Shown: piece by piece, positions 1,829 through 20,857 of the stretch
Position numbering within the stretch: position 1 is the stretch's first letter
Layout of the letters: every line of letters starts with the position of its first letter
Origin: an uncultured Candidatus Saccharibacteria bacterium
GTDB taxonomy: Bacteria; Patescibacteriota; Minisyncoccia; Phycocordibacterales; UBA9973
Assembly (NCBI GenBank): GCA_964606285.1
Contig: CAZSFP010000002.1
Location: 43,890 to 107,889 of the forward strand
Direction of reading: 5' to 3'
DNA: 64,000 nt
The notes under the pieces: model-generated
Databases searched by the model: none
Told to the model about the DNA's origin: nothing
The model's input: only the letters and a program-made list of their open reading frames with translations
Translations under genes and position numbers: made by a program

Positions 1829-1850
1829 TCAAATTTTACAAAACAAAAAT

Positions 1851-1876
1851 ACCGGCAAAAGACCGGTATTTTTGTT
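1851..1876 (+). terminator. Intrinsic terminator-like hairpin (ACCGGcaaaagaCCGGT + T-run) inside the r-protein cluster, after rplB
   Basis: Perfect 5-bp GC-rich stem with a loop, followed by TATTTTTGTTTG, directly after the rplB stop. Confidence 0.5.
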
Positions 1877-1936
1877 TGAAAAATAAGAACATACACACCT
1901 CTGTAAAAGGAAAAATATGGTATGAATTATTTCTCC

Positions 1937-1964
1937 TTGACTTTTATTCTCATTTTGCTAATAT
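1937..1964 (+). promoter_or_regulatory. Sigma70-like promoter (TTGACT-16/17-TGcTAATAT) upstream of rpsS
   Basis: TTGACT at 1937-1942 and an extended -10 TGCTAATAT at 1956-1964. The same TGCTATACT-type extended -10 recurs elsewhere in the window. Confidence 0.45.
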
Positions 1965-2002
1965 CCCCATAGCTCGCTGTGAGCTATTTATTTTTAGGAC
2001 AT

Positions 2003-3848: not shown

Positions 3849-3891
3849 GCTTTACAAACACTCATTTTTAGAGTAAGGTATCACACAGTCT

Positions 3892-4544: not shown

Positions 4545-4811
4545 ATGAACATAAAGAAAAACGACATCGTAGTCATACTGACAGGCAAAGACAAGGGCAA
4601 ACAAGGCGCGGTTGTTCGTTCATTGCCAAAGATGAATAAGGTTATCGTCGAAGGATTGAACATGACAAAGAAACACCAAAAACCTCGCACTCGATCTGAG
4701 AAAGGGAAGACTGTGTCAGTTGCAATGCCGATTCATGCGTCAAATGTCCGCCTTGCTGATAAAACTGCAAAAGCCGCTCCAAAAAAGAAAAAGGCAGCAG
4801 TAAAAAAATAA
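4545..4811 (+). CDS. rplX: 50S ribosomal protein L24 (KOW) with Lys-rich tail
   Basis: 88 aa, [25 protein letters not shown] is a KOW motif in the L24 position. Confidence 0.9.
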
Positions 4812-4829
4812 TCCCACTTATACTATTTT

Positions 4830-5369
4830 ATGGAAACGACAAAACAAAAAGAACAAAATTCATACAAGACGCTCAAATCTGAGTTCGGTTATACGAACGC
4901 ACTTGCAGCACCACGCCTCGTCAAAGTCGTTATTTCTGTGGGAACAGGATCAATGATAAAGAAAGACAAGCACAAGAATGATTTCGTTGTTGATCGTCTC
5001 TCTCGTATTGCTGGACAGAAGCCAGCGGTGAAGAGTGCAAAACAATCAGTTGCATCATTTAAGACTCGTCAAGGCGATCCTATCGGTGTTTCTGTAACAC
5101 TTCGTGGTGCACGTATGTATTCATTCCTCGACAAGTTGCTCAACATCGCACTTCCTCGAACAAAGGACTTCCGTGGTTTGAATAGCAAGGCGATCGACAA
5201 TATCGGCAATCTCACTATCGGTATCAAAGAACACTCAATTTTCCCTGAAACATCAGATGAAGAATTAAAAGATGTTTTCGGTCTCGCAATCACACTCGTG
5301 ACAACTGCAAAGACCAAAGCTGAAGCAGCTGCTTTCTTTGATCTCCTCCAGGTTCCATTCAAGAAATAA
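4830..5369 (+). CDS. rplE: 50S ribosomal protein L5
   Basis: 179 aa with L5-family motifs (…GVSVTLRGARMYSFLDKL…). Confidence 0.95.
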   Translation: METTKQKEQNSYKTLKSEFGYTNALAAPRLVKVVISVGTGSMIKKDKHKNDFVVDRLSRIAGQKPAVKSAKQSVASFKTRQGDPIGVSVTLRGARMYSFLDKLLNIALPRTKDFRGLNSKAIDNIGNLTIGIKEHSIFPETSDEELKDVFGLAITLVTTAKTKAEAAAFFDLLQVPFKK

Positions 5370-5378
5370 ATTTTATAA

Positions 5379-5416
5379 AACACAAAAGCCGCTCTAGAGC
5401 GGCTTTTGTGTTTTAT
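5379..5416. terminator. Strong intrinsic terminator after rplE (ACACAAAAGCCGCTC-taga-GCGGCTTTTGTGT + T-run)
   Basis: Perfect 14-bp inverted repeat immediately after the rplE stop, followed by TTTTATTTG. Confidence 0.7.
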
Positions 5417-5473
5417 TTGCTATTTCAAAAATATATGGTATATTATCTTAAAATAAATCTTTATATATCTCCT

Positions 5474-5866
5474 ATGAAAGGACATGCGCCACACCTGAGA
5501 GTCTCTGTTGACTCATTGTATCTTTTAAAAAAGAAAAATTGGGAATACCTTGACTCTCTTGAAAATATTGTATTTATTCGATCTATTCGTGATGAAGTTG
5601 TTGTTCACTGTAGAGATTTAAAAAAAGTTATTGCGTTTATGACAATGAAAAATCTTGTTATATTATTACCAAAGCAAAAATTTATACGCATTCACCGGCA
5701 ATATATAGTGAATCTTGAATTTGTGAAAGAATACAACAAAAATACTTTGTACATGAAAAACGGAAAAACTTTTCCTGTAGGCAAGGTGTATAGAACAGCC
5801 ACCATAAAAGTCGTTCCCCGAAAGAAGACAGAGAAAAAAGCACAGGTATTACAAATGGCAGCCTGA
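5474..5866 (+). CDS. Stand-alone LytTR-family DNA-binding domain protein, inserted into the r-protein operon
   Basis: …ENIVFIRSIRDEVVVHCRDLKK…LPKQKFIRIHRQYIVNLEFVKEY…LYMKNGKTFPVGKVY matches the LytTR domain signature (FxRxHRSYxVNL…NG…PVSR). Its composition is AT-rich compared with the flanking r-protein genes. Confidence 0.75.
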   Translation: MKGHAPHLRVSVDSLYLLKKKNWEYLDSLENIVFIRSIRDEVVVHCRDLKKVIAFMTMKNLVILLPKQKFIRIHRQYIVNLEFVKEYNKNTLYMKNGKTFPVGKVYRTATIKVVPRKKTEKKAQVLQMAA

Positions 5867-5884
5867 TGTCTTGTTGTCTCACTT

Positions 5885-5914
5885 AAAATCCCGCACAAAA
5901 TGCCGGGATTTTTT
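5885..5914 (+). terminator. Intrinsic terminator after the LytTR gene (AATCCCGgcacaaaatgCCGGGATT + T-run)
   Basis: 7-bp GC-rich stem followed by TTTTTCATTTC. Confidence 0.6.
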
Positions 5915-5970
5915 CATTTCATATATATTATTAATATGTAGACTATTCTTCGTTGTGAATAGGGTATCAG

Positions 5971-5998
5971 TTGACATTTTTTCTCGTTCTGCTAAGAT
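5971..5998 (+). promoter_or_regulatory. Sigma70-like promoter (TTGACA-16-TGcTAAGAT) restarting the spc operon at rpsZ
   Basis: Consensus -35 TTGACA at 5971-5976 and an extended -10 at 5990-5998, about 110 nt upstream of the rpsZ ATG. Confidence 0.5.
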
Positions 5999-6109
5999 GG
6001 GCGGGTTGTGATTTTCACGACATATATCGGTCAATCCATCGTCCTTTGCCTGGTTTCAAATGAAAGCAGACAAAATATGATGAGATATTGCCGATAAATA
6101 CTACACAGT

Positions 6110-6295
6110 ATGGCAAAAACATCCACAGTTGCGCGATCGCAAAAAAAACCAAAATTCAGTACACGGGCAAAAAACCGCTGTTTTCGTTGTGGTCGTGGCC
6201 GAGGATACATGGGTGATTTCGGTATCTGCCGTATCTGTTTCCGAGAACTTGCCAATGATGGCTTGATCCCAGGAGTTCGAAAATCAAGTTGGTAA
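6110..6295 (+). CDS. rpsZ: 30S ribosomal protein S14, zinc-binding short form (type Z)
   Basis: 61 aa with a C-x2-C…C-x2-C pattern ([26 protein letters not shown]) and a C-terminal GVRKSSW. Confidence 0.9.
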
Positions 6296-6386
6296 ATAAC
6301 ACAAGTAAAAGGTTCAGGGTGTCAGGGAATAGTCATACGAATGCATTCACTACAACCTAAAACCTCTTACCTATAACCTAAACACA

Positions 6387-6773
6387 ATGGATCCAATAGC
6401 AGACATGTTGAATATGATAAAGAATGCAGGCCGCGGCACAAAGGACGTTGTTGTCGTTCCTTTTTCTACGGTCAAACAATCCATCGCGAACTGCCTCCTC
6501 AAAGAAGGATATATCGCTGGTGCGGCAAAGAAGACACGAGATGAACACCCTGTCCTTGAACTCTCAGTACTCCGTGTCAATGGCGAGCCAAAGATCAATG
6601 ACATCGTTCGTGTATCCAAGCCGTCACGTCGTGTGTACTATGCAATGAAAGACATTCGTCCGATCCGTTATGGTCATGGTCGTGTTTTTCTTTCAACACC
6701 GAAAGGTATCATGACAGGTGAACAAGCCCGCAAAGAACAGGTCGGCGGCGAAGTGCTTTTCAAAATCTGGTAA
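6387..6773 (+). CDS. rpsH: 30S ribosomal protein S8
   Basis: MDPIADMLNMIKNAGRG… matches the S8 N-terminus; 128 aa. Confidence 0.95.
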   Translation: MDPIADMLNMIKNAGRGTKDVVVVPFSTVKQSIANCLLKEGYIAGAAKKTRDEHPVLELSVLRVNGEPKINDIVRVSKPSRRVYYAMKDIRPIRYGHGRVFLSTPKGIMTGEQARKEQVGGEVLFKIW

Positions 6774-6786
6774 TTTATATACTTTT

Positions 6787-7320
6787 ATGTCACGAATCGG
6801 AAAACAAATCATCTCTATACCAGCAGGCGTCACCGTTACAAAAGACGGCATGATTCTTTCTGTGAAAGGTCCAAAGGGAACATTGTCTCGATCATTTTTT
6901 GATTCAATCGCTATCACGATCGCCGACAACACTGTGACATTTGCTCCAGTAAAACTCACTGTCGAATCAAATGCTCTCTGGGGAACATACGCCGCTCATG
7001 TCAAAAATATGATCACTGGCGTCACTGAAGGATTTTCAAAGAAACTTATTCTCGAAGGAGTCGGATACAAATCTGAAGTCAAAGGAAAAGACCTCAATCT
7101 CGCTCTCGGTTTCTCTCATCCTGTTGTTGTTGCAATTCCAGAAAATCTCACAGTGACTGCTGAAAAGAATGTTATTACGTTTTCAGGTATGGACAAGGAG
7201 TCAGTCGGACAATTCGCAGCAAAGATTCGTGCAATGAAGAAACCAGAACCATACAAAGGGAAAGGTTTTCATTATGACGATGAAACAGTTCGCCGAAAAC
7301 AAGGTAAGAAGGCTGCATAA
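6787..7320 (+). CDS. rplF: 50S ribosomal protein L6
   Basis: [21 protein letters not shown]… matches the L6 N-terminus. Start corrected to the ATG at 6787, inside the longer ORF that begins at 6718. Confidence 0.9.
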
Positions 7321-7331
7321 AAAATCATTTT

Positions 7332-7676
7332 ATGAATACAACACTACTACAAAAAAGACTCCGTTTGAAGAAAAAGATACGAACAAAAGTATTTGGTACT
7401 GCAGACTGCCCTCGACTCTCTGTATTTCGATCAAATGCGCATATTTACGCACAACTTATTGATGATACAAAAGGTGTAACACTCGCATCAGCAAGTGATA
7501 TGAGTATGAAGAAAGGAACAAAAAAAGAACATGCTGCACATGTTGGAAAGACTGTTGCCGAAGAAGCAAAAAAGTTGGGTATTGCGAAAATCGTCTTTGA
7601 TCGCAACGGTTTCCGTTATACTGGACGAGTTGCACTCCTTGCAGCCGCTGCACGAGATAACGGACTTACATTTTAA
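7332..7676 (+). CDS. rplR: 50S ribosomal protein L18
   Basis: 114 aa with the L18 signature ([18 protein letters not shown]…[15 protein letters not shown]). Confidence 0.9.
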
Positions 7677-7681
7677 TTTTT

Positions 7682-8272
7682 ATGGAACCACAAACACCTA
7701 CAACTCAATCAGCAGCACCGGCACGACGCCCAAGCACAGGAGCCCCACGACCAATGGGATCTTCAGGATCACGTCCAAGTGGTCGCCGATCTTTTGCTGA
7801 TCGTCCAAAATCTGAATTTGATCAAAAGATCATTGCAATCCGCCGTGTTACTCGCGTCGTCTCTGGTGGTCGCCGTATGAGTTTTGCTGTTGCAATGCTT
7901 ATCGGTGATAAAAAAGGTGCGATTGGATTGGGAACAGGTAAGGCAGCTGATACATCTCTTGCAATCCAGAAAGCACTCAAGGCTGCGCAAAAGCACATGA
8001 TCAAAGTTTCTATCACAAAGAACGGTTCTATTGCGCACAATGTGTCTGCAAAATACTCAAGCTCTATGATCATGATCATGCCGAACAAAAACCGCGGTTT
8101 GGTTGCAGGTTCTGCAATCCGAGACATTCTCGTCCTCGCTGGTGTCAAACATGCGACATCAAAAGTCCTTTCAGGTAGCAAGAACAAATTGAATATGGCA
8201 AAGGCTGTTCTCAAGGCACTCGAAGCGATTTCAACACCACATCGTCCAACTGGTACACCAGCTGTTCAATAA
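7682..8272 (+). CDS. rpsE: 30S ribosomal protein S5 with low-complexity N-terminal extension
   Basis: S5 dsRBD and C-terminal motifs (IIAIRRVTRVVSGGRRMSFAVAMLIGDKKG…). rplO follows directly, with no rpmD gene. Confidence 0.9.
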   Translation: MEPQTPTTQSAAPARRPSTGAPRPMGSSGSRPSGRRSFADRPKSEFDQKIIAIRRVTRVVSGGRRMSFAVAMLIGDKKGAIGLGTGKAADTSLAIQKALKAAQKHMIKVSITKNGSIAHNVSAKYSSSMIMIMPNKNRGLVAGSAIRDILVLAGVKHATSKVLSGSKNKLNMAKAVLKALEAISTPHRPTGTPAVQ

Positions 8273-8281
8273 TATTTTTTT

Positions 8282-8713
8282 ATGCAAAAAAACGAATTAC
8301 AATCAAAGACAAAGCGTGTATTCAAAAAGACTGTCGGTCGCGGTGGCAAACGCGGCAAGACTTCTGGTCGTGGCACAAAAGGGCAGTCTGCTCGTGCTGG
8401 TAATAAAAAGCGTCCACAAATGCGCGATATCATCAAGAAGCTCCCAAAGAACCGTGGGTATCGTTTTAAATCTTTTGCAATCAAGCCCGCATCAGTAACA
8501 CTTGCGGCTATCGAAAAAGCATTTGATGCAAAAGCGATCGTCTCTCCACAGACACTTCTCGAAAAAGGCCTCGTCCGTCTCGTCGGTGGTCATCTTCCTG
8601 TCGTCAAAATTCTCGCAACAGGCACTCTCACAAAATCTCTCACGATTCAAAACGTTGTTGTTTCTAAATCCGCAAAAGACGCTATCGAAAAAGCAGGTGG
8701 TGCGGTACAATAG
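8282..8713 (+). CDS. rplO: 50S ribosomal protein L15
   Basis: 143 aa with a Gly/Arg/Lys-rich N-terminal segment (GRGGKRGKTSGRGTKGQ) typical of L15, placed just before secY. Confidence 0.9.
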   Translation: MQKNELQSKTKRVFKKTVGRGGKRGKTSGRGTKGQSARAGNKKRPQMRDIIKKLPKNRGYRFKSFAIKPASVTLAAIEKAFDAKAIVSPQTLLEKGLVRLVGGHLPVVKILATGTLTKSLTIQNVVVSKSAKDAIEKAGGAVQ

Positions 8714-20470: not shown

Positions 20471-20473
20471 TTG

Positions 20474-20857
20474 TGGAACTGGGCGGAATCGAACCGCCGT
20501 GCAATCATATTCTCAATACGAATCTCCGTGTGCAGATTCTTTCTTGTTTTAAATCATCTGTCTATGAAAGAAACAAAACAACAGACGATCGATCCCTGTG
20601 TTTCGGACGCTGTATCGGGAGGTACAACATTCCTATCATGAAATATGAAGCTCACTTTCTTCTATCATGAAATCAAAGAAGTGAACTGCTCGCGATTAAA
20701 CGCGGGCAAAAGCAAAGTTTGCCATACCGAAGTATGGAGACTTTACTCCTGAACGAAATGCGTTTGCATTTACGGTGTTGCAAGAAGTTTTGCGAGATTC
20801 CTGTGGACTCGACACGCACGCACTGAGGACACATGACTGTCTAGGCCTTTCAGTCCC
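20474..20857 (-). ncRNA. ssrA: tmRNA (ssrA), one-piece
   Basis: Minus-strand 5' end GGGACUG pairs with the 3' CAGUUCC. The 3' tRNA-like T-arm is GGCGGUUCGAUUCCGCC followed by CAGUUCC-A. The encoded tail is ACAA, so CCA is not fully encoded. The candidate tag ORF reads …GCA AAC UUU GCU UUU GCC CGC GUU UAA (ANFAFARV*). It lies immediately 3' of smpB. Confidence 0.75.

Follow-up and report, generated by a model that had tools for sequence, protein, structure and literature searches.

A stand-alone LytTR gene in the rplE–rpsZ gap of a patescibacterial S10-spc ribosomal cluster and a candidate S8-type leader RNA upstream of rpsZ

Described systems and the rplE–rpsZ locus

Capsule and O-antigen loci and defence hotspots are variable islets that are swapped by homologous recombination anchored in their flanks. 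For uncultured bacteria, the ribosomal protein cluster serves as the standard block of phylogenetic markers, on the assumption that its genes are syntenic and inherited vertically. Bacteria of the candidate phyla radiation (CPR) have very few transcription factors. LytTR domains have been described as the C-terminal domains of phosphorylated response regulators such as AgrA, ComE and the B. cereus protein of structure 3d6w. Receiver-less LytTR regulators are encoded in the LytTR regulatory system (LRS) operons HdrR/HdrM and BrsR/BrsM of Streptococcus mutans, which have an extended −10 promoter, a co-transcribed downstream gene for a transmembrane inhibitor, and two 9-bp direct repeats, 11–13 bp apart, located 4–11 bp upstream of the operon −35 (PMC6193735). 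In E. coli, ribosomal protein S8 represses the spc operon through a mimic of 16S helix 21 at the start of rplE, an element found only in Gammaproteobacteria (PMC3616713). Here we describe a 64-kb stretch of DNA, called the window below, with an S10-spc ribosomal cluster on the + strand of its 5' end. A stand-alone LytTR gene is located between rplE and rpsZ of this cluster. Sequence comparison indicates that divergent alleles of the gene have been exchanged at the locus that is most conserved in the genome, and the leader of rpsZ is a new candidate for an RNA that mimics the S8 binding site.

The window belongs to the Patescibacteria (CPR), Paceibacteria/Nomurabacteria type. Its closest L5 matches among GTDB species representatives were metagenome-assembled genomes of Paceibacteria, Nomurabacteria or Minisyncoccia with identities of at most 71%, and no L5 relative above 75% identity was found in the JGI metagenome scan. 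The contigs of close relatives (L081, L164, L166 and others) were obtained solely through protein look-ups.

The LytTR gene (5474..5866, + strand, stop codon included) starts with ATG and encodes 130 aa. A preliminary description of this DNA had predicted a LytTR-only protein, and the profile search bore this out: residues 29–108 matched PF04397 with an E value of 1.7e-15 and 57.4 bits (cut-off 22.6), covering profile positions 8–91 of 98. Pfam gave no other domain. The receiver domain (REC, PF00072) was absent, and the NCBIfam models BtsR and LytR matched by their C-terminal parts only, far below cut-off. No histidine kinase gene was adjacent, the neighbours being rplE and rpsZ here as well as in L081, L164 and L166. 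With no REC domain and no adjacent kinase, as the preliminary description had also noted, a two-component response regulator of the LytR/AlgR type was rejected. A longer ORF (open reading frame) starting with GTG at 5408 was also rejected, because it overlaps the promoter and the N-termini of the homologues give no support for it.

The AlphaFold2 model, built from a 36-sequence alignment, contained 12 strands and 3 helices, in agreement with the ten-stranded beta-fold of the AgrA type, and reached a predicted local distance difference test score (pLDDT) of 88.4. The best Foldseek matches were 3d6w, 4xqj, 3bs1 (AgrA) and 4cbv (ComE), with a probability of 1.0. The LytTR domains of AgrA, ComE and 3d6w share the same beta-fold (template modelling score about 0.75–0.77, target-normalised) and the F-x-R-x-H-R...V-N motif, although sequence identity is just 15–23%. 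Unlike these domains, the LytTR domain of the window protein is the whole protein, apart from its terminal motifs. Residues F70, R72, I73, H74, R75 and N80 were invariant in six aligned members of the family, and the R/H/R positions vary in the distant P0121 and P0122. An N-terminal M-x-H-x-P-H-[LI]-R motif was kept in the LytTR members, and a C-terminal ...[MI]AA tail was kept in seven of the eight, the exception being the most distant one, P0122. The variable N-terminal half corresponds to the first six strands of the fold. The protein is quite probably a functional regulator, which would bind DNA through the LytTR beta-fold.

The ...MAA/IAA terminus was considered as an ssrA-like degron, but this found no support, since the tmRNA tag of the organism ends in ...FAFARV. 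The tmRNA gene (20473–20857, − strand) itself has an unusual predicted tag, ANAFRSGVKSPYFGMANFAFARV, which lacks the common ...LAA ending.

Like the LRS regulators, the window protein is small, receiver-less and without a cognate kinase, is expressed from an extended −10 promoter, and is presumably a DNA-binding factor. In contrast to them, it has no co-transcribed membrane inhibitor and no autoregulatory 9-bp repeats, is monocistronic within a ribosomal cluster, and is hypervariable among close strains.

The rplE–rpsZ gap is bounded by rplE (uL5; 4830..5369, + strand; Pfam Ribosomal_L5 and L5_C), the last gene of the upstream transcription unit, and by rpsZ (6110..6295, + strand), the first gene of the downstream unit, which encodes a zinc-type uS14 of 61 aa (PF00253, E 2.6e-24). 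All elements given in the preliminary description were found between them with slightly shifted coordinates. Terminator 1, now placed at 5375..5416, is a bidirectional intrinsic terminator that ends the rplE unit. It is a perfect palindrome with 21-nt arms (100% complementary), a 19-bp stem, a G+C core and U-rich flanks, with a folding energy of −27.7 kcal/mol and a z-score of −8.95. Its stem carries compensatory changes in L081 and L164 (GCCGCTC.. to ACCGCCG..), and it was the only conspicuous repeat between 5360 and 6115. The LytTR gene promoter (5417..5444, + strand; TTGCTA-16-TG-n-TATATT, extended −10) was found by pattern scan and is kept by every allele, the distant L168 and L169 among them, despite the divergence of the coding sequence. 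Terminator 2 (5885..5914, + strand; hairpin at about 5885–5912, followed by a T-run; −11.3 kcal/mol, z −3.9) ends the LytTR unit, so that the gene forms a transcription unit of its own between two terminators, as had been proposed. The pattern scan missed terminator 2 because of its loop size; hairpins of differing sequence with T-runs occur at the same position in L081, L164, L169 and L082.

The predicted rpsZ operon promoter (5971..5998, + strand; TTGACA-16-TGCTAAGAT, extended TG-C-TAAGAT) had 10 of 12 matches plus the TG. It is near-identical in L081, L082, L164 and L166, and a TTGACW...TGCTAGTAT arrangement is located 5' of the leader upstream of rpsZ in most relatives, including distant ones. 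Overall, promoter-like sites in the region were no more frequent than expected by chance (24 against 27.6); the rpsZ promoter is credible because of its conservation in relatives and not because of scan counts. Downstream of it follow a 110-nt leader, rpsZ and then rpsH (uS8; 6387..6773, + strand), which was taken from the ORF list, with PF00410 matched on the L081 and L164 orthologues.

The preliminary description had called the LytTR gene visibly lower in G+C, and this was confirmed: its G+C content was 0.33, and of the 58 ORFs of the window (0.42 ± 0.044) just one had a lower value. Windows of 300 nt dip to 0.29–0.31 against about 0.42–0.45 nearby. Third-position G+C (GC3) was 0.31 against 0.373 ± 0.076, within one standard deviation (sd); this shift is small, and amino-acid content therefore explains most of the low G+C.

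Three independent Logan contigs (L082, L083 and L167) have their position 1 inside the 42-nt palindrome of terminator 1, which suggests that de Bruijn assemblies break there and is relevant to the recovery of this locus from public assemblies. By eye, no Shine-Dalgarno-like purine run was seen in the stretches 5' of rplE, the LytTR gene, rpsZ and rpsH (4811–4829, 5447–5473, 6098–6109 and 6374–6386, respectively), which were A/U-rich instead.

Divergent LytTR alleles between conserved flanks

Compared with the window, the relatives had 91–100% identical ribosomal proteins, and identities were 89% for adk, 94% for map and 94% for a 907-aa HerA/TraG-like ATPase. The L5 proteins of L081, L164, L166 and L169 were 96–98% identical to that of the window, and the rpsZ product was 97–100% identical among close relatives. 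The identities of the LytTR proteins to that of the window were 99, 61, 42, 37, 36, 35 and 37%. LytTR alleles were about 37–76% identical between genomes with 89–100% identical flanking proteins. The LytTR promoter, both terminators, and the rpsZ promoter and leader were 95–100% identical around the divergent alleles.

Nei-Gojobori estimates gave dS 0.2–0.5, dN 0.004–0.03 and dN/dS 0.01–0.11 for the flanking ribosomal genes, and dS of about 1.0 (window against L081), dN 0.03 and dN/dS 0.03 for SecY. For the LytTR gene dS was saturated (pS 0.58–0.76), with dN 0.25–0.45 and dN/dS 0.09–0.4. The ORF was intact in all eight alleles. The gene is constrained yet deeply diverged, and its dN/dS values point to a functional gene.

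On either side of the gene, the flanks of L081 and L166 matched at 97–100% identity over several kb, measured in 100-nt windows. Between the two contigs, the LytTR coding sequences were 48–75% identical in nucleotides and the proteins 55%, with 42% in the N-terminal part. In L082, the N-terminal part of the protein shared 90% identity with the L166 type and 27% with the window protein, and the C-terminal part shared 69% with the window type; rpsZ of L082 was 99% identical to that of the window. The L082 gene is an intragenic chimera. Both patterns go beyond point substitution, and this comparison indicates allelic replacement by recombination between near-identical backgrounds, with some breakpoints inside the gene. 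The depth of the alleles and their mosaic structure suggest that diversifying selection may maintain them.

Between rplE and the LytTR gene, L166 carries an additional monocistronic unit of 488 nt with its own terminators (7401–7912). It encodes an acidic protein of 129 aa with no Pfam, PADLOC or PHROG match, and the unit is not in L081. In L164 the LytTR terminator is separated from the rpsZ promoter by an insertion of about 110 nt (8540–8650) with a long inverted repeat. The insertion is bounded by duplicated GTTGAC (the −35 sequence) and looks like a miniature inserted element. In L169 (1640–1783) the LytTR terminator is followed by a promoter-like site and an ORF (MKILLIESSKYGF...) in place of the rpsZ leader, and the contig ends within this ORF.

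The family is rare. A word-indexed search of 5.8 billion proteins returned three relatives, and alignment searches raised the number to seven. Exhaustive HMMER searching of 1.84 billion representatives gave two matches with E ≤1e-30 and one with 6.6e-19, below which only generic LytTR proteins at about 1e-10 were found. The family thus comprises eight clusters among the billions of proteins searched. In L081, L082, L083, L164/L165, L166, L167 and L169 the gene lies directly after rplE and/or directly before rpsZ; in L168, the most distant member, it lies at the contig start. It was not found in about 125 relatives with L5 identity ≤75%.

An integrative mobile element or prophage remnant was considered and rejected, because neither an integrase or transposase, nor direct repeats flanking the LytTR gene, nor relatives of the protein on viral contigs were found. 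A phage or defence origin was rejected as well: PADLOC gave no match, viral relatives were lacking, and the sole PHROG match was a LytTR-containing family of unknown function. In its conserved flanks, its unrelated cargo across relatives, the lack of an integrase and the sharp identity boundaries left on replacement, the locus resembles capsule and O-antigen loci and defence hotspots. It differs from them in that the flanks are ribosomal genes of the most conserved cluster of the genome and the cargo is one small factor.

Open junctions of the cluster and the rpsZ leader

The rplE–rpsZ junction had been described as normally tight. Junction gaps were measured at 15 junctions of the cluster in loci with L5 identity ≥53%, and this showed the opposite for the clade of the window: the rplE–rpsZ gap (n = 90 loci) had a median of 748 nt and a maximum of 4274 nt, and exceeded 300 nt in 69% of loci, with unrelated genes inside. 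The rplB–rpsS gap (n = 37) had a median of 519 nt and a maximum of 2053 nt, and exceeded 300 nt in 73%. Only these two junctions, L5|S14 and L2|S19, were expanded. The L16|S17 gap, which holds rpmC (n = 107), had a median of 234 nt and a maximum of 470 nt, with 16% above 300 nt. The remaining 12 junctions (n = 48–128) had medians of 9–46 nt, maxima of 285 nt or less, and none above 300 nt. In distant relatives (L5 identity <50%; labelled Doudnabacteria or Saccharibacteria) the rplE–rpsZ gap was 14–136 nt. In the window, the second break, rplB–rpsS (1829..2002, + strand), consists of a terminator hairpin followed by a TTGACT..TGCTAATAT promoter and, ahead of rpsS, a short hairpin. In this clade the S10-spc cluster was cut anciently into separate transcription units at rplB–rpsS and rplE–rpsZ.

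The rplE–rpsZ gap is a hotspot of accessory genes. Its cargo is mutually unrelated across relatives, and many of the ORFs have no Pfam match. Cargo included cytidylate-kinase-like, Na/Ca exchanger, NUDIX and nucleotidyl (NTP) transferase proteins, a 1300-aa NHL/LysM protein, an aspartyl protease, MazF, a sigma-70 factor and an AAA_28 ATPase. Pilin-like N_methyl proteins with a 110-aa partner were the cargo in 6–8 genomes. No LytTR match was found among the cargo of the relatives searched, and neither the window gap nor a set of about 30 cargo proteins of relatives included an integrase or transposase. The cargo is invariably located between the rplE stop codon and the rpsZ promoter. A limited literature search, which is no proof of novelty, found no account of these junction hotspots.

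The recurrent pilin pair consists of a protein of about 110 aa without Pfam match, followed by one to three pilin-like PF07963 (N-terminal methylation motif) proteins. It is located at 6925–8294 in L015, 1329–2196 in L024, 4093–4924 in L027, 3431–4325 in L029, 7255–7743 in L030, 6561–7417 in L044 and 6650–7030 in L031. At the other open junction, the rplB–rpsS gap of L081 (3769–4463) contains a minus-strand ORF of 117 aa that is not in L166.

The preliminary description held that an insertion had split the operon into two transcription units, with a promoter that restarts rpsZ. A split caused by the insertion did not hold, as 59 loci without the LytTR gene have the conserved rpsZ promoter and leader. 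In the window the structured leader RNA was located at 6026..6097 (+ strand; covariance model R1, 32.7 bits, E 8e-7), preceded by a small hairpin at the 5' terminus, where the rpsZ mRNA is predicted to begin (6005..6021, + strand; RNAfold of 6005–6112); this hairpin is conserved in close relatives. R1 was built from 28 leaders with the close relatives of the window left out. It gave a single match in the 64-kb window and 59 matches in 163 loci, one per locus, on the + strand and directly upstream of rpsZ. In the model-based alignment 96.8% of cells were paired and 17 of 19 pairs covaried; because the alignment was fitted to the model, the pairing is somewhat inflated. None of 500 shuffles reached the values of the leader, and slid structures were 38–52% paired. 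RNAalifold on a plain MAFFT alignment gave 14 of 17 pairs covarying, and the window leader folded at −36.9 kcal/mol with a z-score of −6.8. By these covariation data the leader is a conserved RNA structure. Rfam 15 gave nothing at gathering threshold for the leader, only chance-level matches with E up to 10.

The core of the leader, 5'-(G/A)AUC-3' opposite 5'-GAUAU(C/U)-3', resembles the S8 site of E. coli 16S helix 21, 5'-AGUC (596–599) opposite 5'-GAUACU (639–644), as checked on the E. coli sequence. No 16S gene was found in the window or in the loci of relatives. The S8 site is defined by two triples, (G597-C643).U641 and A595.(A596-U644), and by the invariant A642 (PMC4176348). In the leaders the equivalents of U598, C599-G639, A640 and A642 were invariant, and that of U641 was conserved, with C in four leaders. 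The A642 equivalent is 6089, the last A of AUA at 6087–6089. Two Watson-Crick pairs after the core were kept and covaried. The core of L010 is exactly AGUC/GAUACU, and that of L014 is GGUC/GAUACC. The rpsH product carries an LSTPKG motif, the counterpart of the conserved S-T-S/T RNA-binding tripeptide (PMC4176348).

The leader resembles the E. coli S8 operator in being an mRNA element of the spc region with a core similar to the helix 21 site, and in that S8 is encoded in the unit that would be regulated (PMC3616713, PMC4176348). It differs in that it is the 5' leader of rpsZ, has three helices and a variable hairpin, and is restricted to a CPR clade. Since the E. coli element is confined to Gammaproteobacteria, the CPR leader would be an independent invention. 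The similarity of the cores suggests that it may be an independently evolved S8 feedback element and a candidate ribosomal-protein leader. Within the limits of our literature search, which cannot prove novelty, no rpsZ or S8 leader in CPR bacteria was found described.

In four loci (L049, L051, L055 and L163) another conserved hairpin (GAUUGGAAGC ... GCUAACCAAUC) replaces the leader motif about 60–110 nt 5' of rpsZ. A further variant ending in GCGAUAUUGG is located upstream of rpsZ in L019, L034, L045 and L053.

Interpretation, alternatives and further observations

The operon break predates the LytTR gene, because the rpsZ promoter and leader are conserved in relatives that lack the gene, and the cargo always lies 5' of this promoter, so the LytTR gene did not create the break. 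The rpsZ-rpsH-rplF... unit would be expressed from its own extended −10 promoter and leader, and S8, the product of its second gene, would feed back on the leader. DNA placed between the rplE stop codon and the rpsZ promoter would leave ribosomal expression undisturbed. Undisturbed expression together with the highly conserved flanks suggests that the gap collects accessory genes, and its cargo may be replaced by homologous recombination anchored in these flanks. In the narrow lineage of the window the resident cargo is a monocistronic LytTR gene with its own promoter and terminators on either side, under purifying selection. The protein is most likely a stand-alone transcription factor. Having no receiver, it would be controlled by abundance or dosage or by an unlinked partner, and its target or partner would differ between strains. 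Overall, we regard it as rather probable that this is a lineage-specific, recombination-shuffled stand-alone LytTR factor in an ancient, clade-wide operon gap. A more far-reaching version is possible and put forward tentatively. According to it, the open junctions would be homology-anchored cassette sites, and negative frequency-dependent selection would keep ancient, recombining LytTR alleles as a strain-specificity or immunity-like regulator, perhaps towards host, phage or competence, beside an undescribed S8-mimic leader that independently re-invented spc-operon feedback.

Several results weigh against these proposals. No LytTR-type 9-bp direct repeats were found near either promoter, and such repeats were not enriched in the whole window (35 found, 31.6 expected). 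The spacer 5' of the rpsZ promoter does not change along with the allele of the LytTR gene. In L168 the LytTR gene is followed by TMEM175 and CorA, with no rpsZ within 3.4 kb, so site fidelity may hold in a narrow clade only. The family has few members (eight), all of them metagenomic, and the selection tests are therefore of low power. Diversifying selection is argued from the depth and mosaicism of the alleles and not from dN/dS above 1. Of the 28 leaders, 25 have A-U and 3 have G-C at the equivalent of pair 597-643, and the leader contains an additional bulged A. The start codon follows the leader at a distance of about 12 to more than 100 nt, so a simple occlusion mechanism would not be general.

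Some of the same results bear on whether the LytTR protein is a dedicated local regulator that binds near the rpsZ promoter and couples ribosomal protein synthesis to a signal. The gene lies immediately 5' of this promoter in seven contigs, and an inverted repeat, CTATTC-8-GAATAG, is located just 5' of the −35 in the window, with a different one, CCAAT-9-ATTGG, in L082. However, LytTR-type direct repeats are missing; L081 and L166 share the same spacer, promoter and leader with proteins that are 55% identical overall and 42% identical in their N-terminal parts; in L164 the gene and the promoter are about 110 nt further apart; L169 has another ORF there; and most relatives use the same promoter and leader without a LytTR gene. 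This makes a local regulator unlikely. An allele-specific operator upstream of the rpsZ promoter was rejected, since L081 and L166 have different alleles but the same spacer.

An alternative in line with the preliminary description is a recent horizontal insertion, in which a foreign regulator broke a continuous spc operon, the terminators and the restart promoter having arrived together with the gene. The low G+C of all alleles (0.33–0.35 against about 0.42–0.45), the absence of the gene from relatives with L5 identity ≤75%, and its own promoter and terminators are consistent with this. Yet the rpsZ promoter and leader occur in the 59 loci without LytTR gene, including gaps of just 135–250 nt, and the gene is found at the same site in seven other contigs with alleles about 37–76% identical, which points to a long-standing resident. 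GC3 lies within 1 sd, and an integrase, flanking direct repeats and viral-contig relatives are missing. We therefore consider a recent insertion very unlikely. What stands of the proposed horizontal acquisition is that the gene is lineage-specific and compositionally distinct; it is not a recent one-off, as seven of the eight family members have it at the same site. The comparison of the junction in relatives had been set beforehand as the refuting test, and it gave a divided answer, with the same site in relatives but no core-like composition. The earlier interpretation is thus partly supported, and it was wrong on cause and timing.

It is equally improbable that the protein is the regulator half of an LRS of the HdrR/BrsR type with its membrane inhibitor encoded elsewhere. 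LRS operons likewise encode a receiver-less LytTR protein of about this size behind an extended −10 promoter (PMC6193735), but the LytTR gene is monocistronic between two terminators, with terminator 2 about 20 nt after the stop codon and rpsZ as the next gene, so that no membrane-protein gene follows. The 9-bp direct repeats expected 4–11 bp 5' of the −35 are absent as well: no repeat pairs with ≥7/9 matches were found in 5340–5425, and terminator 1 takes up that position. LRS membership was rejected for these reasons.

Least likely of all is a decaying or neutral remnant that appears hypervariable only relative to the slowest genes of the genome: ribosomal dS is indeed low (0.2–0.5, against about 1.0 for SecY), which partly inflates the contrast, and the low-G+C ORF at 11655–12182 (− strand) is also about 40% identical to its L164 counterpart, but the eight alleles are intact with dN/dS 0.09–0.4, the core motif and termini are conserved with a confident AlphaFold model, the promoter is kept and the changes in the terminator stems are compensatory, ordinary proteins are 89–94% identical, and clock-like decay cannot yield flanks of about 99% identity around coding sequences of 48–75% in L081 and L166.

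In a large CPR clade, two junctions of a marker block are hotspots of accessory genes and contain breakpoints of recombination, which bears on the use of such contigs in binning, concatenated trees and strain tracking. A transcription factor that is variable between strains yet fixed in position would offer a handle on strain-level ecology, e.g., host or phage specificity. The leader is a testable new candidate for a ribosomal-protein autoregulatory RNA outside Gammaproteobacteria.

Two further loci of the window were noted. At the rplP–rpsQ junction (3849–3891) rpmC (uL29) is missing and the gap is 44 nt, likewise in L081 and L164. No trace of L29 was found by tblastn anywhere in the 64-kb window, and more distant relatives have an L29 gene of 62–71 aa at this junction. 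The second small ORF mentioned above (11655–12182, − strand) encodes 175 aa with a G+C content of 0.33 and no Pfam match. It forms a hypervariable islet between map and the 94% conserved gene of the 907-aa HerA/TraG-like ATPase, and its identity of about 40% to the L164 counterpart extends over 91 aa.

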